Below, in pieces: positions 16,102 to 55,929 of a DNA stretch of 64,000 nucleotides. The notes under the pieces were generated by a model. The model made no database searches. It was not told the DNA's origin and saw only the letters and a program-made list of their open reading frames with translations. Source of the DNA: an uncultured Phycisphaera sp. Its GTDB lineage: Bacteria; Planctomycetota; Phycisphaerae; UBA1845. The DNA is taken from assembly GCA_964486335.1 (NCBI GenBank), contig CAZAMB010000005.1, positions 100,008 to 164,007 on the forward strand, in the 5' to 3' direction. Positions within the stretch are counted from its first letter, which is position 1, and the number at the start of each line of letters is the position of its first letter. The position numbers and the translations under genes are program-made.

Positions 16102-16246
16102 CGTTGATCACGCCTATATTGTCCTTGAAGCACCATCGCCGCAAGCCCCAATCTCGATTCGCGGTTCGCATCAGTCGCTTTCTCACGGGCCGGGTTGTTT
16201 GCAATTGCCGGCAGTCGTAGACTGGTCGGTTCGGAGAGCCACTTTC

Positions 16247-35077: not shown

Positions 35078-35273
35078 GGCCGCGTGATATCGATACCGAC
35101 AACGGCCGTCAAGTCGCGCCCCAGAAAGCCACGCCCCAAAAGGGCGATTTCCGGTTCCGGCCGAACCGCCATTTCTCGCTTGACGACGGTTGATTGGCGT
35201 AGTTAAGATGCAGGTCAACAGTCAGGTCGAGCTGCGGGTCCGAGAGGGGTGTCGTATTTTCGGAGGACCGACC

Positions 35274-41768: not shown

Positions 41769-41809
41769 CGCCTTGCGAAAACTGCATGGCCCAGCTATAC
41801 TTCCCAGTC

Positions 41810-42169
41810 ATGACTTCGAGCCATTCCACGGTTGCACCGCCGCGAACGCTGCCGGCTCCCGAGACGCTGGAGGACACGCGCGCTCACCATCAGCTTCTGC
41901 CGATGTATCATGTTGTCCTGCTTGATGACAATGACCATACGTATGACTACGTGATTTCCATGCTTCGAAAGCTCTTTGGCATGACGACCGAACAGGCCTT
42001 CGTTCACGCCAACGAAGTGGACACGCAAAAACGAGTGATCCTCGATACGACCACGCTCGAAAGGGCTGAGTTAAAGCGGGATCAGATTCACACGTTTGGG
42101 CGCGATTGGCGCATTCCTCGTTGTGCCGGCAGCATGTCCGCGGTCATTGAGCCGGCCGGCGACCGATAA
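41810..42169 (+). CDS. clpS: ATP-dependent Clp protease adaptor ClpS
   Basis: MYHVVLLDDNDHTYDYVISMLRKLFGMTTEQAFVHANEVDTQKRVIL is the ClpS core. Start at the MTSSHS Met. Confidence 0.85.
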   Translation: MTSSHSTVAPPRTLPAPETLEDTRAHHQLLPMYHVVLLDDNDHTYDYVISMLRKLFGMTTEQAFVHANEVDTQKRVILDTTTLERAELKRDQIHTFGRDWRIPRCAGSMSAVIEPAGDR

Positions 42170-42309
42170 GCCCACAGAGATAGACACTTTTCTCAAGCCC
42201 ACTGAATTCGCGGGCCTGCGGTGCTTCGCTTGCGAATCGGCAGAATGTGTTTTTTTCGAGTCGTTGACAGCCCGAAACGACCCGGCTAACGTTTGGAAGC
42301 GATGTCTTT

Positions 42310-42381
42310 GCGGGTGTAGCTCAGTGGTAGAGCGTCACGTTGCCAACGTGAATGTCGAGGGTTCGAGCCCCTTCACCCGCT
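42310..42381 (+). tRNA. tRNA-Gly (anticodon GCC)
   Basis: GCGGGTGTAGCTCAGTGGTAGAGCGTCACGTTGCCAACGTGAATGTCGAGGGTTCGAGCCCCTTCACCCGCT. Acceptor GCGGGTG/CACCCGC, anticodon loop TTGCCAA; no encoded CCA. Confidence 0.9.
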
Positions 42382-42653
42382 GTTCCTGACGCGCCGTACC
42401 ACGAAGCGACACAGGCGTGCAACCTTTGACTCCAACGCTAGTTACAGCGACCGATTCTCGGCTTTCCTAGATTCTCATTGCCTGGTCGCTTTTGCCAGAA
42501 AGTGACCGGAATGGACCGCAGTGGACGCCCATTCGTGCAAGGTCTAGTGCGAATTGAACTCGATGAAAATGCTACGAGGGTTGTGAATTGGCGGGCTTCG
42601 ATTGGTGGTGGGTCGACGCTCGGAGATTCGTCGACCAGTGCGCTCAAAGTAGA

Positions 42654-43166
42654 ATGGAAATGGTCATGGGAATTCGCAACGTCATGGCAGCATTTGAGGC
42701 AATCGATCGTTGCGTCACGAGATGGATGGCTCGTTATGGGCAGCTGCTCCTTCGATTAAGCTTGGCCTTTGTTTTCCTCTGGTTTGGCGCCTTGAAATTC
42801 TTTCCCGAAATGAGCCCCGCCCAGGAACTCGCCACGCGTACCATTGGTTATTTGACCGGCGGTTGGGTCGGCCCAGGTCTGTCCGTTCCTGCACTCGCGG
42901 CGTGGGAGTGCCTGATTGGGCTTGGACTCCTCATCGGAAAGGGACTGCGCGCCGTCCTGTTCCTTCTATACTTGCAGATGATGGGTACGTTGACGCCCGT
43001 GGTCCTCTTTCCCGAAGTAGTGTTTTCCCGCATTCCTTTCGTTCCGACCTTGGAAGGACAGTACATCATTAAGAACCTCGTATTGATCAGTGCAGGCATT
43101 GTGATCGGCGCGACTGTTCGCGGTGGCAAGCTGGTCGCCGAGCCGCACGCCGTTGTGGACGAATGA
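42654..43166 (+). CDS. DUF417/YkgB(RclC)-like inner-membrane protein
   Basis: About 170 aa, RYGQLLLRLSLAFVFLWFGALKF.. four-TM pattern typical of the DUF417 family. Start ambiguous (42654 or 42684). Confidence 0.55.
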   Translation: MEMVMGIRNVMAAFEAIDRCVTRWMARYGQLLLRLSLAFVFLWFGALKFFPEMSPAQELATRTIGYLTGGWVGPGLSVPALAAWECLIGLGLLIGKGLRAVLFLLYLQMMGTLTPVVLFPEVVFSRIPFVPTLEGQYIIKNLVLISAGIVIGATVRGGKLVAEPHAVVDE

Positions 43167-43627
43167 ACTTACAGAGTACGCCGGACGGTTTCACGCTCCC
43201 ATTCCAGGCATTCGGCAATCCATAAGGAAAGCTCGGCGGCCAGGTCCGCTCGCAGGAGGATGTACGAGCCCCGACCGTATTTTTCGTCGACTGGATGCAA
43301 CACGGCATGGGCGGCGGGTGTGGTCAATTCCAATTAGCCTACCGTCATCGACGCCCGTTCGCTCTTCAGCGGTCCGGTCAGTGCGAGCATTTGATAGATC
43401 AATTCCCATTCTCGTCTTGCGCGTTCGAGATGAGCAATCAGTTCTAGGTTATACGACTGTATATTGTGCGCTCGCTCCATGGCGGCATGCAAATCATTCA
43501 ACGTCAGAGCCGCTCGCTTCCACGTGGCCCGACTTTCGCGAGTTCGCCACTCCTCGCTTGAAAGCACGACTTCGCGTCTGTACTCCGCAAGAGGCCGCGA
43601 CTGGGCGACGAGCAAAAACCGTTTCAA
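43148..43627 (-). pseudogene. DinB/YfiT-like or regulator-like gene interrupted by an in-frame TAA
   Basis: A 97 aa ORF ends at TAA (43333..43331). The same frame continues for 54 more codons of protein-like sequence (..HPVDEKYGRGSYILLRADLAAELSLWIAECLEWERETVRRTL) down to a TAA at about 43169..43167. Confidence 0.35.
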
Positions 43628-43772
43628 TTCAGATTCAGTCGAGGCGCTTCGCGGGAGACACTGATCTTTGGTTCAGACGGGAGCGCAAAAAGTTGCCAAA
43701 TGCGTCCGGGGCGTTTGCTTGAGAATGAAGTATGAGACAGAATCCCGATACTCTTCAGCTTGAGGCACACTA

Positions 43773-44009
43773 ATGCGACCCAGTTTTAATACAATTTGGC
43801 AAAACGGGCGCTTTACAGGATCTTTGACGCAACATCTCAAAAAGATTGCTCAATTGAGTAGATCGACTTTCAATTGCGAACGCTACTTGAAAGCGCTTCT
43901 TAATATTATCATACTATCAACTGATGCTCGTCTCATTAGAACGAAAGGACTCTCGGAGTTTTTGCGGCAGCGTGTTCCGCATTCGGGCCTCATATCAAAT
44001 TCGGCCTGA
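43773..44009 (+). CDS. questionable small ORF in an AT-rich segment
   Basis: 78 aa ORF in a 43690..44050 stretch of about 42% GC, far below the window average. No family recognised. Confidence 0.2.
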   Translation: MRPSFNTIWQNGRFTGSLTQHLKKIAQLSRSTFNCERYLKALLNIIILSTDARLIRTKGLSEFLRQRVPHSGLISNSA

Positions 44010-44055
44010 GCGGGGCTGACAAGGACGTTGAGCTGTCCTACCCAATCATGACGCT

Positions 44056-45465
44056 GTGCCATCGAAAAGTGTTTGGCTGAGGTTTTTCTGTGAAGGCCGT
44101 TGCCTTTCGAGGGCCGCGCTGGCGCGGTCGCTTGCGGACCAAGGCGTATCGGTCGTGGATCCTTTGTCAGAGCGCGAGTCCGGCCCCGGAATTGTCGTAT
44201 TCCAAATTGTTAATTCCGAGCTCTGTGAGCTGATGTCCAAAGTCTCATGTTGTGGTTCGGAACGAGTGCTCGCTTTGGCCGATACTCCATCTGTACTTAA
44301 AAAAGGAGACGTTTGGCGCCTTTTGCACGCCGGCGCGGCGGATGTATTTGATTGGGTGGAATCGGCCAATCCGGCACGGGAGATCGCGATCCGGTTGACA
44401 CGTTGGACCGAGGTCGACGAAATTGTCAAATCATCTCTGGTTCGGGAAAACCTGATTGGACATAGTCGAATTTGGAACGACCTCCTTCGACAAATCGTCG
44501 AAGTAGCGCGATTTTCCGAAGCCTCGATTCTGATAACAGGAGAGAGTGGAACCGGTAAGGAATTGATTGCCCGTTTGATCCATACACTCGATGCCCGGCC
44601 AGACAAAGGTGAACTCGTCGTGCTCGACTGCACAACGATTGTACCGGAACTCGCTGGAAGCGAATTCTTTGGTCACGAGCGTGGGGCCTTTACCGGAGCG
44701 ATTGTCGCACGTGATGGCGCCTTCGCGCTGGCGAACGGCGGCACGCTTTTCCTCGACGAAGTCGGAGACCTACCACGGACGTTGCAGGCGCAGTTGCTTC
44801 GCGTGATACAGGAACACACCTATAAACGTGTAGGAGGCAACCAATGGTGCCAGTCGCATTTTCGATTGTTGTGTGCCACGAACAAGGACTTGACGGTTGA
44901 GGTGAAGGAAGGGCGATTTCGCGCCGACTTGTACTACCGAATTGCAGATTGGACGATTCGATTGCCCCCACTTCGTGACCGTACCGAGGACATTCCCCTG
45001 TTGGCTCGACACTTCATCCAAGCCCATGGCCACCATCGGAGCGATTTCAATTCCGAAGTGACCGAGTATCTGTTGTCTCGGGACTACCCGGGAAACGTTC
45101 GCGATCTGAAACAAGTGGTGGCGCGAATGAGCCATCGACACGTTGGCCAGGGCGAAATCACCGTCGGAGCGATCCCGCCCACGGACCGGCCTCAGGCGGA
45201 GAGTCCGTTGGATAGATGGAGCGACAGAGTGTTCGAACTACCGGTTCGACACTCTCTGGCAGTTGGCGTGGGACTGAAGGAAATCGGCCGAATTGCCGAG
45301 GAGACCGCCGTTCAGATCGCTCTCGCGGAAGAAGGCGGAAATCTGCAGCGAGCCGCTCGACGATTGAAAGTGTCGGATCGCGCCTTGCAGCTCCGACAAG
45401 CCAACGGACGAGGACCCAAGGAAGCGCCCAGCGACCCCGTCATCGAGGGACGGACGCCTGCGTAG
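44056..45465 (+). CDS. sigma-54-dependent transcriptional activator (bEBP) with degenerate N-terminal receiver-like domain
   Basis: AAA+ sigma-54 interaction domain (ITGESGTGKELIARLIH, GAFTGA, ESELFGHE-like FFGHERGAF), C-terminal Fis-type HTH. The N-terminal ~130 aa resemble a receiver but lack an obvious phospho-acceptor Asp. GTG start at 44056. Confidence 0.85.
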   Translation: MPSKSVWLRFFCEGRCLSRAALARSLADQGVSVVDPLSERESGPGIVVFQIVNSELCELMSKVSCCGSERVLALADTPSVLKKGDVWRLLHAGAADVFDWVESANPAREIAIRLTRWTEVDEIVKSSLVRENLIGHSRIWNDLLRQIVEVARFSEASILITGESGTGKELIARLIHTLDARPDKGELVVLDCTTIVPELAGSEFFGHERGAFTGAIVARDGAFALANGGTLFLDEVGDLPRTLQAQLLRVIQEHTYKRVGGNQWCQSHFRLLCATNKDLTVEVKEGRFRADLYYRIADWTIRLPPLRDRTEDIPLLARHFIQAHGHHRSDFNSEVTEYLLSRDYPGNVRDLKQVVARMSHRHVGQGEITVGAIPPTDRPQAESPLDRWSDRVFELPVRHSLAVGVGLKEIGRIAEETAVQIALAEEGGNLQRAARRLKVSDRALQLRQANGRGPKEAPSDPVIEGRTPA

Positions 45466-46282
45466 CCGGCGAAGGTTGGAGCCATGGCTCATTTGGCTCG
45501 ACCATCGGTCTGGAGGGCTTGGCGCCAAAGTGAACGGAACCGACGGGGTTTCGCGAGACTTGGGAAATGAGCCTCAGGATATTCCCGCCGAGAACAAGTC
45601 GCGCGTACTGGGGCGACATGCCAAGCGCTCGAACCTTGGCCAACTCGACGCCAGGATGCAACCAAGGACCGTCGGAACCAAACAGAATTTTTCTTGCGCC
45701 GGCACGATGAAGCGCTTCTTCGAGCAGATCGAACCTTCTTACACCGGACGTATCGGTATGGACATTGGGGTAACGAGTCAGTATGTCCAGGAACGCTCGC
45801 TGGGCGCGCCAGTCGTCTGCGAAGCTGCCCAGATGCGGGATAATGAAATTGACGCCGGCGTATTCCGAAGCGATCAACTCTACCTGCGAGACCTCGCCCA
45901 TCACATCGTAGAGGATGGGCAATGACCAGCGTTTCGCGGCTGCGCAAACCTCTCTTGTGATGGAAGCGTTGTACCGATGGACCTTGATTCCGCGAAATCC
46001 ATGCACGTGCACCGCCTCGTCGATCATCGCCTGCATTCGACCCCGGTCGGCATGTGGGTGGACGAAGGCAAAGCCGATAAAACGACCATTGGATTGAGCG
46101 ACAATTCTCGCCACTTCGCGGTTGGCGGTTCGGTAGTCGGAATGAAACGCAGGGAAGAGTACAGTTCGGCGAATCCCGGCCGCGTCGGCCCGAGCAATGT
46201 ACTTCCCAAGCGGCGCAGCGGTGTCCCAGGGACCCGTCAATCCGTCTCCGCGACCGGCATGGCAATGGCAGTCAATGATCAT
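45440..46282 (-). CDS. amidohydrolase-2 family TIM-barrel metal-dependent hydrolase
   Basis: MIIDCHCHAG (HxH) N-terminus, later His and Asp ligands (FIIPHLG, FGSDGPW). Confidence 0.8.
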   Translation of the reverse strand: MIIDCHCHAGRGDGLTGPWDTAAPLGKYIARADAAGIRRTVLFPAFHSDYRTANREVARIVAQSNGRFIGFAFVHPHADRGRMQAMIDEAVHVHGFRGIKVHRYNASITREVCAAAKRWSLPILYDVMGEVSQVELIASEYAGVNFIIPHLGSFADDWRAQRAFLDILTRYPNVHTDTSGVRRFDLLEEALHRAGARKILFGSDGPWLHPGVELAKVRALGMSPQYARLVLGGNILRLISQVSRNPVGSVHFGAKPSRPMVEPNEPWLQPSPATQASVPR

Positions 46283-46442
46283 GGAATCAACCTGAAAATC
46301 GTGATGGACCGCCTGCGGTAGTTGAAGTTCATTGCCGATGCGTCATGGATTCGTCGCCTCTGGGACTTCAGTAACATCTCCGACAAGACCAATTGAATAC
46401 CGGGCCGTCTGTTCACAATTGCCGAAGCGATTTGATTTTAGT

Positions 46443-47447
46443 TTATAGAATCGCACCCGATCGAGATTTGAACCAGGGGGTCAACCGTCTGGCGCCGTCC
46501 AGATTCAGTTCGGTGTGAATGTGATTCGTATGCGGACTAGGGCCAGCATAGTTTCCGTCCTTTCGGCCACTCCGTGAACCATTCCATTTGATACGATTCC
46601 AAATAACGAACTGAATTCCGATGGCCGAAGCATTTTGTACAAGCCAGTTCGCTATCGGATCTCCGACGGCGGAGTTTGCTTGGTGATCTATTTCGCGAAT
46701 CATGATGTCGAGAGCGCGCCCCACCCCGTGAACGGAGGTTTCTGACGGAGTTGCTGAATTAAATCGACATGCATAACCACCGACGGAATCAACGCCTGGA
46801 AACGTCCTTCGTATATAGGTTCCCAGTTCGGCCGCGCCAGGTGTAAACGTGCCGCTGCAATTGCGTCCATTGGCCCACGGTGGAGGACTATCATAGCGAA
46901 CAAACTGTGCTTCGCCGGCAGCGCGAACGTCGGCGGGTAGCACCCATTTCTCGCTCGAAATCGACGGGCTCGGAGAATCCGGCATACTTCCCGTGAGTCG
47001 CTCCCAGGTCCGTCTGCCGACAATGCCGTCAACCGTCAAGCCGTTCGCTCGCTGAAATGTCAGTACCGCCGCTCTCGTAAGGGGACCGAAGGCCCCATCC
47101 TCAGAAAGGCGGCTTTGTCCGGGCGCGGCGTTAGTCGCAATCCAAGCATTAAGTCGTCTTTGCAATTCGATGACAGCCGCTCCGCGCGAACCGGTTCGCA
47201 GCGTTGGCCAAGTTGGTGACTCGTTGAGAATCTCGTCGAACGATAACTCGTCAAGACCAAGTTCATGACCAGGGGACTGCTCAATTTGAAGTACACCGGG
47301 CAAGATCTCATCCAGCTCGGTTGAAAATGGCGATTGATGATCCAGCGGCAGGATGATGTTGCGGCCATGTCGAAACCAGCGGCCGCCTCGTTTTGCACGC
47401 AGGCCACTTGTTTTTCTTACAGAAGATGATGCGCGCAGTCTGTTCAT
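46443..47447 (-). CDS. endolysin-like protein: peptidoglycan-binding domain (PG_binding_1) plus LAS/M15-type metallopeptidase-like C-terminal domain
   Basis: LTVDGIVGRRTWERL is the PG_binding_1 signature. SVHGVGRALDIM and HTNHIHTE resemble LAS-peptidase zinc ligands (SxHxxGxAxD ... H). ATG at 47447 overlaps the upstream stop (ATGA). Residues ~20-35 carry the GRWFRHGRNIILPL motif. Confidence 0.6.
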   Translation of the reverse strand: MNRLRASSSVRKTSGLRAKRGGRWFRHGRNIILPLDHQSPFSTELDEILPGVLQIEQSPGHELGLDELSFDEILNESPTWPTLRTGSRGAAVIELQRRLNAWIATNAAPGQSRLSEDGAFGPLTRAAVLTFQRANGLTVDGIVGRRTWERLTGSMPDSPSPSISSEKWVLPADVRAAGEAQFVRYDSPPPWANGRNCSGTFTPGAAELGTYIRRTFPGVDSVGGYACRFNSATPSETSVHGVGRALDIMIREIDHQANSAVGDPIANWLVQNASAIGIQFVIWNRIKWNGSRSGRKDGNYAGPSPHTNHIHTELNLDGARRLTPWFKSRSGAIL

Positions 47448-48604
47448 GACCTGACTCCTTGGTTTAGGGACAAAGTGGAACCGTAAGATTCCCCGGCGGC
47501 TGAATTCTCGAGTTTCAATTGGCGTGCGCGCGCCAGCGCTTGGCACGCTGAACTGATGTCAATTGGGTTGTGATCGGCGTTGATCAGAAAGGCGATGTTT
47601 GCCCGTGCAGGTCTTTGAACCGAAAGCAGTACCGTTTGGACCCCCATACCCCTAAGCCGACCGGTCATTCTCCTTGCTTCGCCTGACGACCGAAACGACA
47701 ATATCTGCACAGGGAAGAGTCCCGGAGATGGCGTGAATCCTGCCGATCGTGTTCCGGCACGAAATCGTCGTACATTGGAGAGGAGCTGCGATCGTCGTGA
47801 GTTGCCGATGCGCTCGTTGGCCGTCAGCGCGTTCGTGGCAGCCCTGATGGACGCCTGGGAAGGCGGACTGCAATGAACTCGAGTCTCGCTGCGCGTTGCA
47901 AACTGCTCGACAATGTCACCGCGACTCGACAGAGCGGCCACCGGCGCTCCGAATCCCTTGGCCAGGGAACTGATCAAGACCAATTCCTTCGCGCGAACGC
48001 CCCACCACTGGGAGCTTCCGCCTCCGCCTAGCCCATACGGCATTGTTCGCGTCGGTCGCGCGCCAAGAACGCCAAGCGCTTGAGTGTCATCTACGACAAC
48101 AAGACCCTTCACGGCTCGCATCTGACGAAGATAGCTTGTAAGAGGTGCAACCCGTCCGCATCGCATACAGGAACCATCAACGACAACCACCGGACGTGAT
48201 GCAGGCCCGCCAGCATCCTGAAGTGATCGACGCAATGACGAAGGGCAATAGTGCCGAAACGTCTGGACAGACGCGCCGCGCGCCGCCGCCCGTTCCAGTC
48301 CCCAGCGTCCGATGGGATAAAGTCCGCTATCCATGAAAAACCGTGCCCCTTCGTCGGCGAGCATGCCGAGGAAGTCCCAAAACAAGTGTAACGTCGAAGT
48401 TCCAAGCAAAGCCGCTTCACAGCCTTGCAGGTCGGCCAACAATTGGGCGACCCGCTTCGCCTCAGCTGACTCATCAAGTGCCGCAGGTCGGCCGGTCGTC
48501 AACTGCTCCCACGATCCCAGCGCCGAACTCGGGTGCCGCATGCCCAGATACTGGGCCGAGGTAAAGTCAAGCACTGGATGATTTCCGTCAACGACCTCTG
48601 CCAC
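47444..48604 (-). CDS. alpha-oxoamine synthase (BioF/KBL)-like class I/II PLP-dependent aminotransferase, divergent
   Basis: 386 aa, SLAKGFGAP matches the S-x-x-K PLP-lysine motif of the AONS/KBL family. Overall pattern of fold-type I enzyme. Confidence 0.65.
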   Translation of the reverse strand: MAEVVDGNHPVLDFTSAQYLGMRHPSSALGSWEQLTTGRPAALDESAEAKRVAQLLADLQGCEAALLGTSTLHLFWDFLGMLADEGARFFMDSGLYPIGRWGLERAAARGASVQTFRHYCPSSLRRSLQDAGGPASRPVVVVDGSCMRCGRVAPLTSYLRQMRAVKGLVVVDDTQALGVLGARPTRTMPYGLGGGGSSQWWGVRAKELVLISSLAKGFGAPVAALSSRGDIVEQFATRSETRVHCSPPSQASIRAATNALTANERIGNSRRSQLLSNVRRFRAGTRSAGFTPSPGLFPVQILSFRSSGEARRMTGRLRGMGVQTVLLSVQRPARANIAFLINADHNPIDISSACQALARARQLKLENSAAGESYGSTLSLNQGVRS

Positions 48605-50261
48605 CCGTCAATTGCGATTGCAGCCGTTGGCTTAATAGCACTGAAGGCATGGTCGCATTCACCATTCCACTCACCGGCTGAGCTGTCAGATCAACACCCG
48701 TAGCCGCGCGGTAAGCATGGAGGTAACCCTGAATTTCCGGCTTCCAATATCGAGCCCATGTTCGAGCGTGTTCCTGGTCTGTTAGGACATTCCAGTTTCC
48801 ATACCGGATCGAGAGCAGAATCCGTTCTCCGAGGACGCCCAAATCGCGAAAATGGGTGACCGTTACGTCGCTCCAACCCTGAACTCGTTTCATCGCGTCC
48901 ACGCGGCCCATCCACGGTTCCGCATAGGGCACCATGATCCGAGTGCCGAGGAATTCGCGCATTTCGGGTCGGGACAACAACCACTGCTGCATCATCATCT
49001 CGACTCGCGCTGTCCACGGCAGATCCCCGAATTGATTGTGCGCCCCTTGGGCAAGCAGCAAATGGACTTCCTTTAGCGCGTTGAGAAGAGGGAACCCGTC
49101 GGAAATCACGGTCGTGTCCGAGTCTTCCTGAAAAAACACGGAGCTGCGATACAAAAGATCGTGAAATGCTTCGAGAAACTTTGAACGGTTGTCGGCCGGA
49201 CGCATGGTCGAAACGGCCTTGCCCGCGAGCGCCAGTCCGTAGTGGTGGCTATACTCATAGGCTCGGCGAGGAACCGTGAGGCGATGGACTTCGTCCTGGA
49301 TGTACCCCCAAAGAAAGTTGTTGAGTGGCCTCAGCGGATCGATTTCCAACTCGGCCAATGGGTCGCGACCTGCGCCGCGCCGTTTGTTCTGGAATCGAAG
49401 GCTGATGGCGTTCAATGTTTGCGCCAACATCCCTTCTTCGTGCCAATACGACCAGATCAGTTCCAGCAGGCATGGACAAGAAGATTTCGCGCAGAGGATT
49501 TTCCCGTCACAGAAGGCCGAGGTAGCCGTCTGTTCTCGCCAATTCTCACCGAAGGCAGCGGTTAGAATCGTGTTCAAGTAATTGATATCCTTCGTTCGCA
49601 AGTAACTCGCCAGCTTGTCGCTAATGTCCTTCAGGGTGCCGCCCGGCAATGGGAAGTCATCCTCCAGACGTTTGACTTCAGATCCGGGGTCATCCTTTTC
49701 ACCCCATCCTTCGGTCTCGGCGCATGCGCATGGATCGCAATTACTCTTTTCACCTGCTTCTTGTTGTTTCTGAGCAGATGCGCCTTCGCGTGTTGTCGAT
49801 TCCGGATCGTCGGGTTTACGATAACAGGGATCAGGCTTTTTCTTTTCGGGGTCCAGAAACTCATCAGGATGCATTCCCTTTTGAAACGGCCCGCATGTGC
49901 AGCCGCAGCGGATGAGCAAAAACGTCTCCGTGGCCGTCTTCAAAAGGTCGTAGGCGTCCATGCCGTGGATGCAGGGTTCCTTGCTCAAACTTTCTCGCAG
50001 CCTTCGTTCCGGGCAGCAGTCGGGATCTTTGGTGTCTTTGTCGCAGAGCACTCGATCAATAAACTTCGCGTATTCCGAGAACGATGTCCGTTCCGAAGCA
50101 GTCCGAATCCACATCCATAACGGATACGTGTCGTCCCGTTTGAGCGGGGATCTCGAAAGCGAAAAGGTGCCGGACGCCGGCTTGGCAAAATCGCCAGAAA
50201 CACTTACCTTGACTCCCTTCGCCAGCTCTTTACCTTCAACAATAATCTTTCCTTCAGCCAT
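48588..50261 (-). CDS. hypothetical Cys-rich protein (557 aa), no recognisable family
   Basis: Strong RBS aaggag 7 nt upstream. Multiple CC/CxC clusters (DPDCCPE, IRCGCTCGP, CDPCACAE, CAKSSCPCL). Local GC is visibly lower than the flanking core genes. Confidence 0.6.
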   Translation of the reverse strand: MAEGKIIVEGKELAKGVKVSVSGDFAKPASGTFSLSRSPLKRDDTYPLWMWIRTASERTSFSEYAKFIDRVLCDKDTKDPDCCPERRLRESLSKEPCIHGMDAYDLLKTATETFLLIRCGCTCGPFQKGMHPDEFLDPEKKKPDPCYRKPDDPESTTREGASAQKQQEAGEKSNCDPCACAETEGWGEKDDPGSEVKRLEDDFPLPGGTLKDISDKLASYLRTKDINYLNTILTAAFGENWREQTATSAFCDGKILCAKSSCPCLLELIWSYWHEEGMLAQTLNAISLRFQNKRRGAGRDPLAELEIDPLRPLNNFLWGYIQDEVHRLTVPRRAYEYSHHYGLALAGKAVSTMRPADNRSKFLEAFHDLLYRSSVFFQEDSDTTVISDGFPLLNALKEVHLLLAQGAHNQFGDLPWTARVEMMMQQWLLSRPEMREFLGTRIMVPYAEPWMGRVDAMKRVQGWSDVTVTHFRDLGVLGERILLSIRYGNWNVLTDQEHARTWARYWKPEIQGYLHAYRAATGVDLTAQPVSGMVNATMPSVLLSQRLQSQLTGGRGR

Positions 50262-50285
50262 GATTTTCTCCTTCGTTCGACGGGA

Positions 50286-51614
50286 CTATGAGGCCCGTGC
50301 GATTGTTTTCTGTGTTCGACCGACGAAAACCCTGCTCCGCGAACAACGGACACAAGCGCCAAACGTGCTTCGAAGCGCCCAATGACTGAGCAATCCACTC
50401 ACGAGGCGACTCTCTTCAACCGGATTGAGGACGCCGTACGCTTTTGCTTGTCCCAATACGGCGAACACAAGCGACTCCGGAGCGGCCCGCAACTGTTCTG
50501 GAAATCGTCGCCAGGTCTGAAAGAGTCTCATTAGGCGATGTGGTTGCCGCTCCTCGACACCGAGGACTTCCCCCAGAGACAATCCCCTGAGAGACTTCGG
50601 TCGATGATGTGTCAACAACGCCACAAAACCAGGAATGCTTGCCTGTAACGCGTTGAATAGCGCGAAACGTCTTGGGTCAAGCTGCGTTGGCGGATAAAAC
50701 GCGTCCCACATCCTCGCGAAATGTTCCCATTGCGGATGTGGATAGAGCGCTTGTCCGACCGCACAACTGAGCTTGACCCTGATCCACGGGCTTGGGTGCG
50801 GATCGTCAAGGTTGATTCGAAAAACGAATCCACGCGGCAGACTGACTACACTCATCAATCCCATGGTGGACGTGATGCCCAACTTCGCCACGGACCAGAA
50901 GTCGGCAACAACCTCGGAAATCCACCGCTCCCAGGCCAGCCACGCAAACGCTTCTGCGCTCCCTTTCTTCCGCATTCCCAGAAGAATTGGCCGGAAGGAC
51001 GGAACCAGTTTCAGCAGTTCCGCTGCCTGATGACCGACCTCGTGGACCAAAGACGATGCGATTCCGCTGCCTACCATTCTCTCCCGCGGCACGCGGATAA
51101 TGGCAACGGGATTGCGCCCGCCCGTGGGCATCCGCGTTCGCGCCCGCCGTATCGCCGCGCCGGGTCCGCGGTCCAGGTAACAAATCACCGGCGGTTCCGA
51201 GTAGTAGCCGCCACCAAGGTGCAATGCATCGGCGGCAAACGCATCCAGTCCGGATAGCCAGATTCCCGTTTCATGTTCGCTGCGTTGAGTGATTGCATCC
51301 GCAAACAGATCAAGATCCGAAAGGACGGCGTTGAACCGCAATCGGAGGAGTACGAATCGCCGCTGCGCTTCCTCGGCGGAGGACAACCGCCCATTCGAAC
51401 CCTCAAGCCACGCCAGAAATGCAACGACTTGTTCCCGCAAATTGCGTCGCCCTTGAAGCAAGTACCCGTCGATGGCTCTTTGCGCGGTTGAGGAAATCGC
51501 CGCGGCGGTTACCGAAGTGATTTGCAGCGCGAATGGCTTCACGATAGCCAGTCGTGTCAGCAGGGCACGGGCTTCCTGCGCAAGAAAACAAGTTGTGTTG
51601 GAACGCATGGACAC
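50286..51614 (-). CDS. hypothetical protein with HExxH zinc-metallopeptidase-like motif (442 aa)
   Basis: LVHEVGHQAAEL motif. GTG/ATG start with gggag RBS. No family recognised. Confidence 0.6.
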   Translation of the reverse strand: MSMRSNTTCFLAQEARALLTRLAIVKPFALQITSVTAAAISSTAQRAIDGYLLQGRRNLREQVVAFLAWLEGSNGRLSSAEEAQRRFVLLRLRFNAVLSDLDLFADAITQRSEHETGIWLSGLDAFAADALHLGGGYYSEPPVICYLDRGPGAAIRRARTRMPTGGRNPVAIIRVPRERMVGSGIASSLVHEVGHQAAELLKLVPSFRPILLGMRKKGSAEAFAWLAWERWISEVVADFWSVAKLGITSTMGLMSVVSLPRGFVFRINLDDPHPSPWIRVKLSCAVGQALYPHPQWEHFARMWDAFYPPTQLDPRRFALFNALQASIPGFVALLTHHRPKSLRGLSLGEVLGVEERQPHRLMRLFQTWRRFPEQLRAAPESLVFAVLGQAKAYGVLNPVEESRLVSGLLSHWALRSTFGACVRCSRSRVFVGRTQKTIARAS

Positions 51615-51620
51615 GACTTG

Positions 51621-52289
51621 TCAAACTCCCAACAGAATGATGCGCCGACCGCGGCGAATCCAGCGACCGCTCTGCCCCGCACTCGAAGTGCTCGCCAGCC
51701 CAGTGTTCATGAGGCCTGGCGCATGACGTTGAGCCGCGGCGGCCAGGGCCGACTTTGCGACGATTCGGGGATCAGTGGTATGTGGGGATGCGGCGGCGTG
51801 CTGAGCAGCGGCGCCGGCCAAGCGAACGAATCGTCGGGCGATTTCAAATTCCTGATCTTCGCCGCTGAGGCCCTCAAATTCCAAGCCAAACAGCTTGCCG
51901 GCCGCGGATCCGGCGGCACTTCCAAGCGCCGTTCCGACACCGGGGATCGGGATGAGTGACCCCAGGGCGCCTCCGGCAATCGGCAGAACCTTCTTGGCGA
52001 TGCCTTTGAGGATTCCGCCAAGCGGACGGAAAACGCGAGGAGCGATGCGCTTAATCCCCTTCCAGGCGCGCTTGAACAATTTGCCGAGGAATTCATCGAT
52101 TTCCTGGTCGCTCGACAATGTGAGCAGTTCGGAGGCGAAATCAACTTCTTCGTCCTGCGTAAATGGTCCCTCGCCGGTCCCGAAATCTCCAAATTCTTCG
52201 AAGACTTCAAAATCGCTCGTTTCACCGCCGAAACCATCGGTTTCCCCGGTGTCTTCGAAATACGTCTGAGTCTGGTCTATGTCGTGCAT
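51621..52289 (-). CDS. hypothetical protein (222 aa): acidic N-terminus, Gly-rich amphipathic middle, C-terminal GRWIRRGRRIILLGV motif
   Basis: Strong RBS aggag 7 nt upstream. Paralogous to the next gene upstream. Confidence 0.55.
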   Translation of the reverse strand: MHDIDQTQTYFEDTGETDGFGGETSDFEVFEEFGDFGTGEGPFTQDEEVDFASELLTLSSDQEIDEFLGKLFKRAWKGIKRIAPRVFRPLGGILKGIAKKVLPIAGGALGSLIPIPGVGTALGSAAGSAAGKLFGLEFEGLSGEDQEFEIARRFVRLAGAAAQHAAASPHTTDPRIVAKSALAAAAQRHAPGLMNTGLASTSSAGQSGRWIRRGRRIILLGV

Positions 52290-52301
52290 GTGTTTCTCCT
52301 C

Positions 52302-53291
52302 TTAAATGCCAAGTGCTACGATGGTGTGTCCCGTACGCATCCACCTGCCGTTACCGGGCCGATGAATGGCATAACTGATCCTTGATTCATCCTCGGTTTG
52401 GTCTTCCTCAGGTGCGACAGGAGGCTTGTTGCTTATGCCGAAACCTTGGTCGATCGAATCCTGAATGACGCTTCCACAATGTTGGGCACATGCCGCACAA
52501 TCGCACTCGATTGGCTCCACGGGTTCCGGCGCGACACCGGCGGCCGAACGTGCCCCACCATTGCTCGATGACGACGGAAAAGAAGATGGCATGGACGTTT
52601 GCGCAGGCCGTGTTCCGCTGTCGGTCGGAGGAAATTCCGGCCCATGGGATGGCTTTCCTGTGCGATGCCGCCATCTCCGTTTGCGTCGAAGCTGCTCGCG
52701 AAGAACGCGGAGTGCTGTTCTAATGGCAGGCAAAGCAGCATTTCTCGCGTGTTGTGTACGAGACAGCCGTCTCGCCAACCGACCTGCCAATCGTCCAAAC
52801 CGAACAGCTCGACGTGCTCTCTCAAGGTCCTCTTCATCCGTTTCGAACCCCTCAAGACTGCCATCAATGAACTCCCGAAATTGAGCGTTCAAAGACTCTG
52901 ACGGATCGCCCATGGGCGACGACGCGATGAAGGGTACCCGGCGAATGCCATCAATTGCGCTCTGTACTTGCGGCGTGATGAACTTGGCCAGACTATTCGT
53001 CGTTGAAGTGAGTGACTCCCCGCATTTGCCTAATGTCGCGAGCACAGCTCTGGCAATCTCGTTGCCACTGACCGCTCCTAGCAGGTCAATTGCCAGTTCT
53101 TCTTCGTTTTTTTGGCGATCGTACATAGCACAATTCAATTGGATTGGACTCGCGCATGGGTCCGAACTCAGCTGTGAAAGAAAGCAAGTTCCATGCCAGA
53201 AAAACTGGGCCAATAATGGGCATTCTGGCGAAGTGTACTTCGCAACGACTGATGAACGGTGCAATTCAGCGAATCGCGCTTCGCCGATCAT
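52302..53291 (-). CDS. hypothetical protein, paralog of the 222 aa protein; C-terminal GNGRWMRTGHTIVALGI motif
   Basis: Shares an acidic segment (EGFETDEEDLERARRAVRFGRLAG vs EGLSGEDQEFEIARRFVRLAG) and the terminal motif with the downstream gene. Start is either 53291 or the internal Met near 53125. Confidence 0.5.
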   Translation of the reverse strand: MIGEARFAELHRSSVVAKYTSPECPLLAQFFWHGTCFLSQLSSDPCASPIQLNCAMYDRQKNEEELAIDLLGAVSGNEIARAVLATLGKCGESLTSTTNSLAKFITPQVQSAIDGIRRVPFIASSPMGDPSESLNAQFREFIDGSLEGFETDEEDLERARRAVRFGRLAGRLARRLSRTQHARNAALPAIRTALRVLREQLRRKRRWRHRTGKPSHGPEFPPTDSGTRPAQTSMPSSFPSSSSNGGARSAAGVAPEPVEPIECDCAACAQHCGSVIQDSIDQGFGISNKPPVAPEEDQTEDESRISYAIHRPGNGRWMRTGHTIVALGI

Positions 53292-53542
53292 TCTGTTCGC
53301 TGTTGTCCAGTGAACGAAACAGGCCGAGGTGTTATGGGATTCCGTGGCCTGTGGTCAATGGTATTGGATAAGGCAACGAATCACTCGTTTCGAGGTGAAT
53401 CGGACGTTTAAAGTGACGAATCCTGACTTGATCCTACTCGATTGCTCCAATGCTGGGATGAATACTCATTTAACAGATCGCAAATGGCTCTTGGAAAGAA
53501 ACGTGGAAGGGGTTTCCGCATTCTCCGTAACTCTTTGGTTTT

Positions 53543-53613
53543 GCGCGGTTTAGAACTCGCTGCGTTCATGTTGCCTACGTAAATGTCGAGGGTTCGAGTT
53601 CCTTCACCCGCTT
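53543..53613 (+). pseudogene. decayed copy of tRNA-Gly(GCC), with similarity to the 3' flank of the intact tRNA-Gly continuing to about 53720
   Basis: 3' 45 nt gttgcctacgtaaatgtcgagggttcgagttccttcacccgct align to the intact gene with 4 mismatches. The 5' half (D-arm) is scrambled. A further ~110 nt downstream align at about 75-80% to 42382..42490. Confidence 0.6.
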
Positions 53614-53656
53614 TGTTTGACGCGCCGTGCCAGCGAGTGACATCGCGGTCCAACTC

Positions 53657-53863
53657 TTGACCCCAGCGCGAGTTACGACGACCGATTCTTGCCTTTCCCA
53701 GGTTTACATTTCATGGTCGCGTTTCGAGCTGTCTAAGCGGGCGGGCGTCCCGTACAGCGGAATCCACCGCTTTATCAGCTACGACCGCGACCTGACCCTG
53801 ACAACGGCGTCACGGCTGGCCGACGTGCTGGGGCTGGAATTGCGCCCTGCAAAAGGAAAGTAG
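53657..53863 (+). CDS. small XRE/Cro-type helix-turn-helix protein (possible excisionase/regulator)
   Basis: LSKRAGVPYSGIHRFISYDRDLTLTTASRLADVLGLEL matches the HTH_XRE pattern. Immediately upstream of the integrase. Start codon uncertain (candidate TTG at 53657). Confidence 0.4.
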   Translation: MTPARVTTTDSCLSQVYISWSRFELSKRAGVPYSGIHRFISYDRDLTLTTASRLADVLGLELRPAKGK

Positions 53864-53870
53864 GTGCATC

Positions 53871-55340
53871 ATGCCGAGAGTATTCCGGCAAAAATACACG
53901 CAACCGACGGCAGACGGAAAACGAAAAACGCGACAAAGCGCTAAGTGGTACGTCGAGTACCGCGACGCCCAAGGCATTCGGCGTCGGGTTCCGGGGTACA
54001 CCGACAAGGGCGCGACCCAACAGCTCGCGGCGGAGTTGGAACGAAACGCGGAGCGACAGCTCGCGGGTCTGGTCGATGCCTTTGCCGATCATCGAAAGCG
54101 CCCTTTGCGGGAACACCTGAATGATTGGCACGGCGCCTTGATCGCACGCGGCGCGTCGCGCGATTATGCCGACTTGGTCAAGAGCCGAGCGACCAAGGCG
54201 CTGACAGGTTGCGGATTCGTTTTCCTTGCCGACGTATCGGCATCCGACCTGCAAGCCTATCTGAGCAGGTTGCGAAGCGACGGACTGAGCATTCAAACGG
54301 TCAATTTCTACCTGCAAGCGGTCAAGCAGTTTTTCCGCTGGATGGTTGCTGACCGACGAATGCCCGACAACCCGGTCGCGTACCTGCGCGGGGGGAATGT
54401 CCGAACGGATCGTCGCCACGATCGACGCGCACTCGACACTGATGAACTGCGATCGCTACTCGACGCTACGAAGAATGGACCGGAACGGTTTGGCATGAAG
54501 CCTGATGCGCGGGCAATGCTTTATCAGCTTGCGGTTGAAACTGGTCTGCGGGCCACCGAACTGCGAACGCTGACTTGGGATTGTCTGGACTTGGAAGGCG
54601 ACCTGCCGACGGTGACGGTCAAGGCCGGTTATAGCAAACACCGGCGAACCGATACCCTTCCTTTAAAGCCGTCTACGACGCAAACGCTGGCCCGCTGGAG
54701 CAACGAACTCGGCAACGTGGACCCAACGGCACGCCTTTTCAACATGCCGCCCAAGGCCGCGAAAATGCTCCGAGCTGATCTGGCCGACGCTGGCTTACCG
54801 TATGCCGATGCTGATGGGCGCGTGGCCGATTTTCATTCCTTGCGGCACACTTACATTTCCAATCTGGCCCGTGGCGGTGTTCATCCAAAGATCGCCCAAC
54901 AGCTTGCCCGGCATTCGACCATTACGCTGACGATGGATCGCTATTCGCACACGGTTTTGGGCGAGCTATCAGACGCACTGTCGGCCCTGCCGGAGCTGGA
55001 CGCCACGCCATTCGAGCAAGAATCGGTGAGAGCGACCGGCACCTGCGGCAACCCCCAAAAATGCTTACCGATTTCCTTACCGAAATCCTTACCGAAACGC
55101 GGTGCGCGGCGAGAGTTGTCCCATTCATCGGCGTGCAATGATCCAACGCAAACCGCGAAATTCGACCGGCAAGAAAATCCTATGAATATAGGTATTTCCT
55201 GCGCTTCCACGCGTGACGACGCGGGTGTGTTCGTGGAACAATCCCGACTGCGCCCGGCGGGATTCGAACCTGCGACCCCCGGTTTAGGAAACCGGTGCTC
55301 TATCCAACTGAGCTACGAGCGCAACAATCGGCTAGTATAA
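53871..55340 (+). CDS. tyrosine-type site-specific integrase (phage integrase family)
   Basis: N-terminal SAM-like core-binding region and C-terminal catalytic box HSLRHTYIS (HxxR) ... LTMDRYSH (catalytic Tyr). The open frame continues ~130 aa past the Tyr, through the antisense tRNA-Arg, to the first stop at 55340. Confidence 0.85.
   Translation: MPRVFRQKYTQPTADGKRKTRQSAKWYVEYRDAQGIRRRVPGYTDKGATQQLAAELERNAERQLAGLVDAFADHRKRPLREHLNDWHGALIARGASRDYADLVKSRATKALTGCGFVFLADVSASDLQAYLSRLRSDGLSIQTVNFYLQAVKQFFRWMVADRRMPDNPVAYLRGGNVRTDRRHDRRALDTDELRSLLDATKNGPERFGMKPDARAMLYQLAVETGLRATELRTLTWDCLDLEGDLPTVTVKAGYSKHRRTDTLPLKPSTTQTLARWSNELGNVDPTARLFNMPPKAAKMLRADLADAGLPYADADGRVADFHSLRHTYISNLARGGVHPKIAQQLARHSTITLTMDRYSHTVLGELSDALSALPELDATPFEQESVRATGTCGNPQKCLPISLPKSLPKRGARRELSHSSACNDPTQTAKFDRQENPMNIGISCASTRDDAGVFVEQSRLRPAGFEPATPGLGNRCSIQLSYERNNRLV
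55249..55322 (-). tRNA. tRNA-Arg (anticodon CCT)
   Basis: Minus strand GCGCTCGTAGCTCAGTTGGATAGAGCACCGGTTTCCTAAACCGGGGGTCGCAGGTTCGAATCCCGCCGGGCGCA. Anticodon stem CCGGT/ACCGG with loop TTCCTAA, T-loop TTCGAAT, acceptor with one G-U pair. Confidence 0.8.
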
Positions 55341-55588
55341 CGGTCCACTGGCCGAAAGCCCGTTACCTAGACCCCTTCCCATCGAGCCTCGTTTACAAAC
55401 GAGGGTTTACTAGTTATCGGACCTTATCGGCTGAAACCAGTCCGGTTTTCTCAATTGAGTCACTGGCGGAATCCGAAATGGTCGAATACGATCATGCCCC
55501 CTCCGTGATCGTGGTATTCGATCGCTTGAGGGTTATGTTGCGTGATGGCGTTGTTTTCCGGTGGCAGTTTGCGTAGATAGGAGCTTTC

Positions 55589-55786
55589 GTGATCAAAGTC
55601 CGACCCCGAGGGAATGAATCAGTCCAGCAATTGCTCAAGCGGTTTAAGCGCCTTTGTCAACGAGAAGGACTGATTCGCGACATGAAGCGGCACAGCTACT
55701 ACGAGAAACCCTCGGATCGAAAGAGACGTCAGTCCCGCAAAGTTGTGCGCAAGGTTGACGTGGTTGAAACTCCGCGGGCGCGCTGA
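55589..55786 (+). CDS. rpsU: 30S ribosomal protein S21
   Basis: 65 aa, MIKVRPRGNESVQQLLKRFKRLCQREGLIRDMKRHSYYEKPSDRKRR is the canonical bS21 sequence. Confidence 0.9.
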   Translation: MIKVRPRGNESVQQLLKRFKRLCQREGLIRDMKRHSYYEKPSDRKRRQSRKVVRKVDVVETPRAR

Positions 55787-55816
55787 TCGGCTAGCATGGA
55801 TTTGAGGAAGTTCTTC

Positions 55817-55847
55817 AGGCGGGGCATTTTGCTCCGCCTTTTTTATT
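55817..55847 (+). terminator. rho-independent terminator after rpsU
   Basis: aGGCGGGGcattttgCTCCGCCtttttta: GC-rich stem followed by a T-run, 30 nt after the rpsU stop. Confidence 0.6.
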
Positions 55848-55929
55848 GACGCGGCCGTCATCGCCCACCACCCGCTCACCGGGTCATCCGATAGTATCCG
55901 TGGAGCGCTGCGAACGAACGCGAAGGGGC

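Follow-up and report, generated by a model that had tools for sequence, protein, structure and literature searches.

The window analysed here is a stretch of 64,000 nucleotides (nt) from an uncultured Phycisphaera sp. of the Planctomycetota (contig CAZAMB010000005.1), and its minus strand carries, at positions 45440-53291, a tight head-to-tail series of open reading frames (ORFs) that make up seven genes, named A to G. Together with the convergent gene of a sigma-54 activator (a bacterial enhancer-binding protein, bEBP; 44056-45465, plus strand), these genes are best explained, on the comparative evidence presented below, as one copy of a self-contained, horizontally spread and sigma-54-dependent cassette. 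The cassette as a whole matches no described system; its function was inferred: it could serve as a bacterial weapon, or as a means of self-lysis, of a new kind.

All seven genes are read from the minus strand. Gene A (52302-53126; 274 amino acids (aa) counted from the ATG at 53126) encodes a divergent paralogue of the product of gene B (51621-52289; 222 aa), the latter being a typical member of what is called here the B family. They are followed by gene C (50286-51614; 440-442 aa) for a zincin-like HExxH protein, gene D (48588-50261; 557 aa) for a large, predicted helical protein that is the most conserved of the core, gene E (47444-48574; 376 aa) for a divergent BioF/Kbl-like protein of the fold-type-I family of pyridoxal phosphate (PLP) enzymes, gene F (46443-47447; 334 aa) for a protein with a PG_binding_1 domain and a LAS-type metallopeptidase domain, and gene G (45440-46282; 280 aa) for an Amidohydro_2 metal hydrolase; F is the sole effector of the window in the variable slot defined below. 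The starts of E (48574) and F (47447) are corrected ones. Spacings between successive genes are 12 (A-B), 6 (B-C), 24 (C-D), 13 (D-E) and 160 nt (F-G), with a 4-nt ATGA overlap of E and F, and G overlaps the 3' end of the activator gene by 26 nt. In the gap between F and G (46283-46442), no Rfam family was detected at the gathering threshold, and no promoter-like or terminator-like site was found, nor any match to a sigma-54 promoter with up to two mismatches. An initial annotation of the region had counted eight minus-strand genes, which the ORF map reduces to seven; the gene order that it listed, the 160-nt gap ahead of the amidohydrolase gene and the convergent activator gene are borne out. 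The strong ribosome-binding sites that it attributed to the downstream genes are present in front of B, D and F (AAGAGGAG, GAAGGAG and CCAAGGAG, respectively) and missing in front of C, E, G and also A. The "visibly lower" GC content described for the first four genes (A 0.55-0.56, B 0.595, C 0.579, D 0.545, versus 0.58-0.62 for flanking genes) comes down to a marginal difference: the two flanking genes measured have values of 0.579 and 0.615, versus 0.545-0.595 for the genes within the repeat-bounded segment described in the last section, and 1-kb windows range from 0.52 to 0.62 inside this segment versus about 0.56-0.62 in its flanks.

For the products of A to D, no match was obtained in Pfam, NCBIfam, PADLOC or PHROGs, apart from weak glycine-rich PHROG matches for B, in agreement with the earlier statement that these four genes belong to no recognisable family. 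No transmembrane helix and no signal peptide was detected in any of the core proteins. The HExxH motif announced for protein C was found as HEVGH at residues 191-195, with H191, E192 and H195 invariant as well as E234 and D238, which lie 39-43 residues downstream of the motif. The protein is 60-68% identical across phyla, and its family comprises 1,124 clusters at 50% identity in a profile search against 1.84 billion representatives; among the 150 matches listed, only members or fragments of the family and B-C fusions were present, with no remote annotated relative. Such fusions, in which a B-family part is joined in frame to C, were seen in five metagenomic proteins (P0426, P0427, P0441, P0490 and P0507) and could be either real or the result of read-through over the 6-nt gap between B and C. 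The AlphaFold model of C (120-sequence alignment) is confident (pLDDT 89.7, pTM 0.88) and is composed of an N-terminal helical bundle, two beta-strands that precede the HExxH helix and a Glu-bearing helix, and a helical C-terminal domain.

Protein D is made up of a variable N-terminal part, which in some homologues contains an Ig-like or CarboxypepD_reg domain, and a core of about 450 residues, predicted to be all-helical, with dozens of invariant polar and aromatic residues (including His, Glu, Asp, Arg, Trp and Tyr; motifs ELIWSYWHEEGML, RRAYEY and GAHNQFGDLPWTAR). From its sequence it looks like an enzyme or a multi-partner hub. More than 4,800 homologues are detectable at 50-69% identity, and every named one is annotated as hypothetical; the profiles of C and D both gave no match among PDB sequences. 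The AlphaFold prediction obtained for D with a 24-sequence alignment gave no usable model (pLDDT 42.5), probably because this alignment was shallow, the prediction for C having succeeded with 120 sequences. The description of D as cysteine-rich applies to the protein of the window and not to the family, in which C73 is the only invariant cysteine: the others belong mostly to a lineage-specific insert, and this acidic, cysteine-laden segment (residues ~120-210 of the window's D, present in the closest relative P0002 and absent from other members) explains the label.

The three remaining products could be assigned to known superfamilies. E, previously described as AONS-like, is indeed BioF-like by family search and aligns with Escherichia coli BioF (1BS0) over 340 residues. 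The PLP lysine is kept (SLAKGFG aligned with FGKGFG of BioF, the lysine being conserved in orthologues), as is the aspartate; DDAHG of BioF is aligned with DDTQALG, whose Gln is conserved family-wide, and the LSHAS region is replaced by YPIGRWG. Both active-site histidines of E. coli BioF (His133 and His207), which stack on and hydrogen-bond PLP, are thus replaced across the E family, in which E departs from the alpha-oxoamine synthases, and its NCBIfam scores are all far under the cut-offs (e.g. 66 vs 426 bits). For F, the endolysin-like LAS peptidase of the initial annotation is recovered: the protein has, in this order, an N-terminal motif shared with the B family (see below), a PG_binding_1 domain (E = 9e-17) and a LAS-type metallopeptidase domain with the zinc motifs HGVGRALD (residue 240) and HIH (residue 309), and has no signal peptide. 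The Pfam match to a LAS-type family is weak (Extensin-like_C, E = 0.003), and F also matches PHROG endolysin entries. The assignment of G as an amidohydrolase holds likewise, with an Amidohydro_2 score of 69.6 bits for a cut-off of 26.4, and an alignment of 39 sequences (38 orthologues and the window protein) shows its metal-site motifs DCHCH, IPHLGS and FGSDGPW to be conserved.

Conservation of the cassette across phyla

One genome per species was scanned, and a relative of D was found in 368 GTDB species representatives. For comparisons of loci, the best 80 of these 368 D-relative loci were fetched (designated by L numbers where needed), and the window proteins were searched against all of their ORFs. 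The fetched loci span about ten phyla, including Acidobacteriota, Proteobacteria, Planctomycetota, Verrucomicrobiota, Chloroflexota, Nitrospirota, Myxococcota and Desulfobacterota; proteobacterial carriers belong to the Alpha-, Beta- and Gammaproteobacteria (including Nitrosomonas, Nitrosospira, Methylococcaceae, Cupriavidus and Bradyrhizobium), and those of the Planctomycetota include anammox bacteria. The order of genes is nearly universal: B in one to three copies, C, D, often E, a variable stretch, G, and the activator gene on the opposite strand. The locus of Bradyrhizobium cenepequi, for instance, consists of two B-like genes, C, D, a PLP gene, a giant PG_binding/OmpA gene, an M20 and an Amidohydro_2 gene, and a convergent sigma-54 activator gene. 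Presence was counted in the 48 loci with sufficient flanking sequence. Each of them has B and C; the activator gene was found in 46 and is convergent in 44 of these, while G was found in 42 loci and E in 34, and the full combination of B, C, D, G and the activator gene in 40.

The window's C is mostly 54-64% identical to its orthologues regardless of phylum (48-49% for 3 of the 66 compared), and identities across phyla are 58-72% for G and 45-62% for the activator. This flat identity profile suggests strong constraint together with horizontal spread. Carriers are mostly soil and sediment bacteria, and the cassette was also found on four rhizobial or Paraburkholderia megaplasmids. One Acidobacteriota metagenome-assembled genome has two complete cassettes (L036 and L047, on CAWCKY010000004.1 and CAWCKY010000002.1) with differing sets of effectors.

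The operon had initially been singled out as a candidate for an undescribed functional module, a proposal against which two results were to speak: assignment of the first four proteins to ordinary housekeeping families, and lack of co-conservation of the set elsewhere. Both were looked for; remote-homology searches gave no assignment for A to D, and dozens of genomes belonging to many phyla share the gene set with its order kept. No account of the cassette was found in the searchable literature, motif strings included.

Clustering of the flanking genes yielded no further recurrent family, and neither a secretion system nor a transporter. The 148 nearest flanking genes are mixed and mostly housekeeping; they include 2 integrases and a few defence hits. 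A defence-island or mobile-element setting is therefore unsupported as a general feature, and the earlier suggestion of a defence-like cassette receives no help from this context. The suggestion that the cassette is phage-derived fares no better, since searches of 50,697 phage records and of 2.9 million IMG/VR contigs gave no relative of D. The operon could in principle be a degenerate phage lysis cassette, with holin and endolysin, captured by an integrative element: F resembles the endolysins of phages of Gram-negative bacteria (a PG_binding_1 domain followed by a catalytic domain, with PHROG endolysin matches), and an integrase and a tRNA repeat are nearby. Besides the phage searches, however, the absence of PHROG matches for A-E and G (save the weak ones of B), the absence of other phage genes from the island and the non-prophage surroundings in other genomes make this origin hardly credible.

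The sigma-54 switch

A sigma-54 promoter, TGGCATGGAACTTGC, is located at 53184-53198 (minus strand), with GG at -24, GC at -12 and an expected transcription start at about 53173. It is preceded by two enhancers, or upstream activator sites (UAS). The proximal UAS, CGAAGTACACTTCG (53229-53242, minus strand), has perfect palindrome arms, starts 44 nt upstream of the first base of the -24 element (the T of TGGCAT, 53198) and is one of just two strict palindrome matches in the 64-kb window. The distal UAS, CGAAGCGCGATTCG (53270-53283, minus strand), has one mismatch to the pattern CGAA[AG]-N4-[CT]TTCG and starts 85 nt upstream of 53198, i.e. 41 nt further upstream than the proximal one. All three elements fall within the first 55 codons of the 329-aa ORF that had been annotated as gene A. 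Gene A thus most likely begins at the ATG at 53126, giving 274 aa, and the 329-aa version is an over-extended ORF whose first 55 codons are the promoter and enhancers of the operon.

Both kinds of elements were then searched for in the orthologous loci. The promoter element TGGCAC-N5-TTGC, with no more than one mismatch and none in GG or GC, was found in 49 of 71 loci at a distance of up to 300 nt from the first B-family ORF, corresponding to 52 sites in 42.6 kb vs 42 sites in 1,264 kb elsewhere, an enrichment of about 37-fold. Of 50 orthologous upstream regions searched with the enhancer pattern given above (the full site being written GCGAAG-N4-CTTCGC), 46 have at least one palindrome ahead of the promoter, and 30 have two palindromes 41-42 nt apart (four helical turns), mostly at -87 and -46 from TGGCAC. 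Palindrome density is 76 sites in 13 kb of upstream sequence vs 66 in 1,376 kb elsewhere (about 120-fold enrichment). No earlier description of the GCGAAG-N4-CTTCGC binding site was found in the literature.

The activator has an AAA+ domain with a GAFTGA motif at residue 210 (Sigma54_activat, E = 1e-56), a C-terminal helix-turn-helix (HTH) domain with a weak HTH_8 match (E = 0.003), and an N-terminus of about 110 conserved residues that is receiver-like (AGAsDVL-W) and matches no Pfam model. From phylum to phylum, the operon is accompanied by the promoter, the paired activator sites and the activator gene, and this comparison argues strongly for a sigma-54-dependent cassette governed by its own activator. 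The possible sigma-54 dependence raised in the initial annotation is accordingly backed by a conserved -24/-12 promoter and a conserved pair of enhancer palindromes.

This arrangement resembles those of PspF-pspABCDE, RtcR-rtcBA and VasH of the type VI secretion system (T6SS), in which the activator gene adjoins its target operon, a -24/-12 promoter is preceded by two palindromic sites, the activator combines an AAA+ domain bearing GAFTGA with a C-terminal HTH, expression is all-or-none, and the products are related to the envelope or to stress. It differs from them in that the genes of the cassette are unrelated to psp, rtc and T6SS genes, and in the short, receiver-like N-terminal module of the activator. 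The regulatory layer is thus an ordinary, very clean sigma-54/bEBP circuit, just as F, G and E belong to known superfamilies. In two other loci, an additional B-family gene is located downstream of the effectors (L057, 16156-16971; L076, 14589-15218), and the one in L057 has its own consensus sigma-54 promoter at 16194.

B proteins, effectors and a candidate function

Proteins of the B family combine a segregated charge pattern with a glycine zipper. From the N-terminus, they contain a conserved start (MHDIDRT; MHDID in the window's B), an acidic, aromatic stretch of low complexity (in the window's B, 60 residues with a net charge of -18), a helix (EEMELAAELLEV-SEEELDQFLG), a basic segment (a basic helix in the window's B) that runs into the glycine zipper GGALGSFIPIPGVGTAVGS, a second helix (LELEGLSPEDQEFEVARRFVR; EDQEFE-ARRFVR in the window's B), an Ala-rich region ending in HAPGLL, and a variable linker. 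The extreme C-terminus is the near-invariant sequence SGRWxRRGxxIxLxG[VAIL], immediately followed by the stop codon (SGRWIRRGRRIILLGV-stop at 51633-51668 in the window) and called here the RW motif. A and B had been taken for paralogues, and A does match the B-family HMM in a single frame from the glycine-zipper region to the C-terminal motif (E = 3e-14). Its glycine zipper is degenerate, and a Cys-containing insert is present ahead of its RW motif (52314-52349). A is missing from the supplied gene calls of a public contig with identical sequence (L083), and its codon-position GC signal is weak. It is considered, from these sequence features, as a real but divergent paralogue of B, with lower confidence as a gene than for the others.

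Several variants of the family were observed. The internal module (helix, glycine zipper, EDQEFE helix and HAPGLL) is duplicated in tandem ahead of a single RW tail in L011 (6327-7805), L018 (6096-7277), L022 (7189-8550), L033 (7045-8292) and L080 (2112-3554). In one B paralogue of several Acidobacteriota loci (L043, 1397-2059; L058, 4911-5600; L069, 6566-7261; L041, 5282-6773), a histidine-rich tail (e.g. HHHHHGHWARHGNKIVLYGF) replaces the Arg-rich one, which suggests a pH- or metal-dependent variant. In a second class of paralogues, the terminal LLGV gives way to GRxIIIxNC, to which QGSG-like residues are sometimes added (L015, 6793-7590; L017, 6759-7529; L028, 6706-7521; L055, 822-2497; L059, 6645-7331; L073, 5832-6638; L075, 1308-2108); where two B copies exist, this class is usually encoded by the upstream one.

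The RW motif gave 116 matches in 14,514 six-frame ORFs, all of them in B-family ORFs or in ORFs of the variable slot (one match being a B-like ORF beside an inverted C gene in L077). Some of the slot effectors carry it at their N-terminus, F of the window among them (GRWFRHGRNIIL, 47349-47384). Identification of the motif as a Tat signal or as intein-like was dropped on sequence alone, as its hydrophobic part is six residues long and its terminal residues vary. An acid-embedded N-terminal motif, EPFE/SPFxE, may be a second shared recognition element, far from universal, being present in 34% of B proteins and 13% of effectors vs 0.5% of flanking proteins. The RW motif and the acidic aromatic leaders are not known to match any of the effector markers MIX, FIX, RIX, PAAR and XVIPCD. 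A short conserved terminal peptide on unrelated proteins, encoded beside a large conserved protein, is also found with the cargo-loading peptides of encapsulins and the N-terminal cargo signals of PVC/eCIS particles; unlike these, the cassette has no HK97-fold shell or contractile-tail genes, D is predicted to be all-helical and the motif sequence is unrelated.

The multi-copy B genes directly upstream of a metallopeptidase-like gene and of enzyme genes, together with the conserved extreme C-terminus, as in precursors whose C-terminal residues become the product, are also what a biosynthetic cluster for a small molecule, or for a peptide similar to ribosomally synthesised and post-translationally modified peptides (RiPPs), would look like, with B as precursors, C as leader peptidase, and D, E, G and M20 as tailoring enzymes. 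Yet B proteins are 200-300 aa long with several conserved regions throughout, no transporter or recognisable RiPP enzyme is encoded, and the variable peptidoglycan (PG) hydrolases, some of them carrying the motif, would be left unexplained. The PLP gene E is moreover dispensable, being missing from about 30% of loci, which also makes the initially considered "small biosynthetic cluster" unlikely as such; a RiPP-like pathway is very improbable.

The variable slot was defined as the 0-8 kb stretch between D/E and G, and its 98 proteins were scanned against Pfam. The families found were PG_binding_1 (38 proteins), PG_binding_3 (20), OmpA (14), M20 (8), VanY (7), M23, Amidase_2 and Trypsin_2 (4 each), and Trypsin, CHAP and DUF2272 (3 each), with single cases including a muramidase, M74, M15_4, a 3D domain and a PLD phospholipase; the M20 peptidase family is represented in 12 loci. 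The usual layout of an effector is a leader, PG_binding_1 and a catalytic domain, often with long uncharacterised extensions. A signal-peptide-like hydrophobic N-terminus was detected in none of 92 slot proteins vs 62 of 573 flanking genes, an acidic, aromatic leader (e.g. MKRLFTFEAEPFEF) in 37 vs 33, and an Arg/Lys+Pro-rich polycationic stretch past the leader in 20 vs 29 of the same sets. A minority of effectors has the N-terminal RW motif instead, namely F of the window and proteins of L017, L027, L037, L041, L051 and L069. The payload is thus, judging by its sequences, a polymorphic set of enzymes acting on PG or membranes, synthesised in the cytoplasm and devoid of a recognisable exit route. 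Among the functions initially listed, the "lysis-like" and "cargo-and-targeting" ones remain live, given the signal-less envelope hydrolases and the terminal motif common to B and some effectors.

The same enzymes could serve in sigma-54-controlled wall remodelling, or in the scavenging of PG (necromass) for nitrogen and carbon, with the M20, Amidohydro_2 and PLP proteins processing muropeptides. Sigma-54 is classically linked to nitrogen assimilation and the cell exterior (Francke et al. 2011, PMC3162934), a tie that would suit this use. An amidohydrolase, a PLP protein and sometimes an M20 peptidase are encoded beside the PG hydrolases, and the hosts are mostly bacteria of soil and sediment. 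Either use is nevertheless quite improbable. The hydrolases have no export signal, no transporter is encoded within the cassette or close to it, and effectors of the PLD phospholipase and trypsin-like kinds are out of place in scavenging; nor would this reading account for B, C, D and the terminal motif, and a patchy, horizontally spread distribution is atypical of core metabolism.

Variable PG enzymes and PLD proteins on shared N-terminal sequences, spread horizontally and in sets that differ between close relatives, recall polymorphic effector arsenals (amidase, muramidase and phospholipase effectors of T6SS; lytic bacteriocins of the pesticin and colicin M types). The cassette is unlike them in lacking a T6SS, a type IV or type I secretion system or any other apparatus, as well as recognised immunity genes and receptor-binding domains. 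In phage holin-endolysin pairs and in lysis-mediated release (colicin lysis proteins, explosive lysis by the endolysin of pyocin clusters), as in the cassette, signal-less PG hydrolases that bear PG_binding_1 at the N-terminus are produced along with small glycine-rich proteins under the control of a tightly repressed promoter. Lysis of the producer as a release route would explain the missing secretion genes. Of the features of holin-endolysin systems, the signal-less PG hydrolase is present (F), and the transmembrane holin and the phage context are both absent; the cassette also differs from them in that B has no transmembrane domain, in its four to five additional, very conserved proteins, and in its effectors, which are polymorphic, often multiple, and include phospholipase D and proteases.

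From these data, we tentatively favour a sigma-54-gated cassette that matures envelope-degrading effectors and releases them by permeabilising or lysing the producer, a model in which regulation and architecture come from sequence comparison and the function is inferred. Sigma-54 promoters have essentially no basal activity until activated, and this silence at rest, with products that would be dangerous to the producer, fits a gated device for lethal products. Activation would turn on B, C, D, the effectors and G together from the sigma-54 promoter. The B proteins would be freed of their acidic N-terminal part, which would mask the cationic glycine-zipper segment and the Arg/Trp hairpin-like tail, and would go on to perturb the cytoplasmic membrane. 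For the processing of the acidic leaders (of B and effectors) and/or of the RW motif, the candidate enzyme is the zincin-like C. Activity of the hydrolases requires either a breach of the cytoplasmic membrane or their export; the B proteins are the only co-encoded candidates. In this way, the hydrolases would reach PG and lyse the producer, and once released they would attack neighbouring cells, possibly helped across the outer membrane by the polycationic Arg/Pro stretch or the RW motif. Cationic or RW segments in front of a PG-binding lysin recall engineered lysins that cross the outer membranes of Gram-negative bacteria, a likeness that would fit if neighbours are the target of the enzymes set free. 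The window would represent a minimal version, with a single effector, the RW-tagged LAS peptidase F. The proposed logic of B and C is comparable to that of bacterial gasdermins, where a membrane-active protein is held inert by an inhibitory segment and a dedicated protease is encoded adjacent to it; it differs in that the sequences are unrelated, B bears no likeness to gasdermin, cleavage is a supposition, and the cassette adds hydrolases and further enzymes.

Several points weigh against this release model. Processing, lysis and release are steps deduced from gene content. No structural relative was found for the model of C that would confirm its presumed zincin fold. B is ruled out as a classical holin, having no hydrophobic segment of transmembrane grade: the maximal Kyte-Doolittle value over 19 residues has a median of 1.22 in the family, and no member reaches 1.6. 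The model assigns no role to the highly conserved D, E and G, nor to the M20 peptidase; some slot proteins are OmpA-like PG binders with no recognised hydrolase domain, and no immunity-like gene was recognised adjoining the effectors. Lastly, identities of 55-70% across phyla are unusually high for a conflict system.

This extreme conservation of the core, as expected for a multi-partner machine, would rather suit non-lytic export or delivery, in which a machine formed or supplied by B, C and D, perhaps with E and G, would carry the signal-less effectors out, the RW motif (C-terminal on B, N-terminal on some effectors) and the acidic leaders being the addresses. The effectors do resemble periplasm-acting toxins (PG hydrolases, PLD) without a Sec signal while no known secretion genes recur in the flanks, the RW motif is position-specific, near-invariant and confined to the cassette, and some D homologues bear Ig-like or CarboxypepD_reg domains. 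The core proteins, on the other hand, include no transmembrane helix, no ATPase besides the transcription factor and no outer-membrane component, and the motif is carried by a minority of effectors only, which leaves such a machine rather unlikely. A broader formulation, somewhat less doubtful and still uncertain, is that the core (B, C and D with E and G) could be an undescribed machinery that activates and exports or releases signal-less PG- and membrane-degrading effectors tagged by SGRWxRRGxxIxLxG and by acidic aromatic leaders.

The molecular events proposed in the release model would be the same in a programmed self-lysis serving as abortive infection or altruistic death, the target then being the producer itself and the activator sensing infection or damage. 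A conserved core with swappable killing effectors recalls many defence systems, sigma-54 provides an all-or-none switch, and the window's cassette is in a tRNA-bounded island beside an integrase. Enhancer-binding proteins also occur in defence catalogues, and the AAA+ part of the activator matches PADLOC models of the RtcR/PspF type; PADLOC models that contain a CARF domain, however, cover the activator only from residue 125-136 onward and not its N-terminal domain. As A to G have no significant match in PADLOC-DB 2.0, none of the core proteins being matched, the genes flanking the cassette elsewhere are those described above, with few defence hits, and a transcriptional trigger is slow for defence, a death programme of this kind appears unlikely.

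Whichever reading holds, C and D are candidate new enzyme folds, and B, C, D and the E clade are large families, with 55-70% identity between phyla, for which no description was found in the searchable literature. If the cassette is a weapon or release system as favoured here, it would represent a new mode of antagonism in environmentally dominant and little-studied groups (Acidobacteriota, Planctomycetota, Verrucomicrobiota, nitrifiers, methanotrophs), and would provide natural lysins fused to cationic segments that might help to cross the Gram-negative outer membrane. Should the export or release machinery be true, a new sigma-54-gated secretion or weapon system with at least two folds without known relatives would extend across phyla of soil, sediment and wastewater; a death programme would likewise be a new one. 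The defined promoter and enhancers make the system directly testable in culturable carriers, among them Paraburkholderia phymatum STM815, Ensifer adhaerens, Bradyrhizobium sp. Ai1a-2, Cupriavidus respiraculi and Nitrosospira briensis.

Island boundaries and neighbouring genes

The cassette had been placed in an island bounded by a tRNA and an integrase. It is indeed bracketed by an imperfect direct repeat of 159 nt (78% identity), the left copy of which (42335-42493, plus strand) comprises the 3' half of a tRNA-Gly gene (42310-42381) and downstream sequence, and the right copy (53566-53724, plus strand) a truncated tRNA-Gly 3' half. Besides the operon and the activator gene, the 11.2 kb enclosed hold a DoxX-like ORF. 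The integrase is not a boundary: no integrase gene was found inside the repeat-bounded segment, and the gene of a tyrosine integrase (53871-55340, plus strand) is outside it, 147 nt past the right copy, the boundary itself being the tRNA-Gly repeat. The 3' end of the integrase gene overlaps a tRNA-Arg(CCU) gene (55248-55323, minus strand), its last ~90 nt running antisense through it, so that either the true C-terminus of the integrase or an attachment site is probably inside the tRNA-Arg gene; for the 3' end of the latter, no repeat of at least 16 nt was found within 41000-56000.

Two further genes of the window were noted on the tRNA-Gly side. At 37306-38175 (minus strand) is encoded a protein of the metallo-beta-lactamase fold, which matches the Pfam family of the anti-Pycsar nuclease Apyc1 (92 bits for a cut-off of 50), and within a 695-aa ORF at 35190-37277 (plus strand) there is a Kazal-type serine-protease-inhibitor domain, an unusual find in bacteria.

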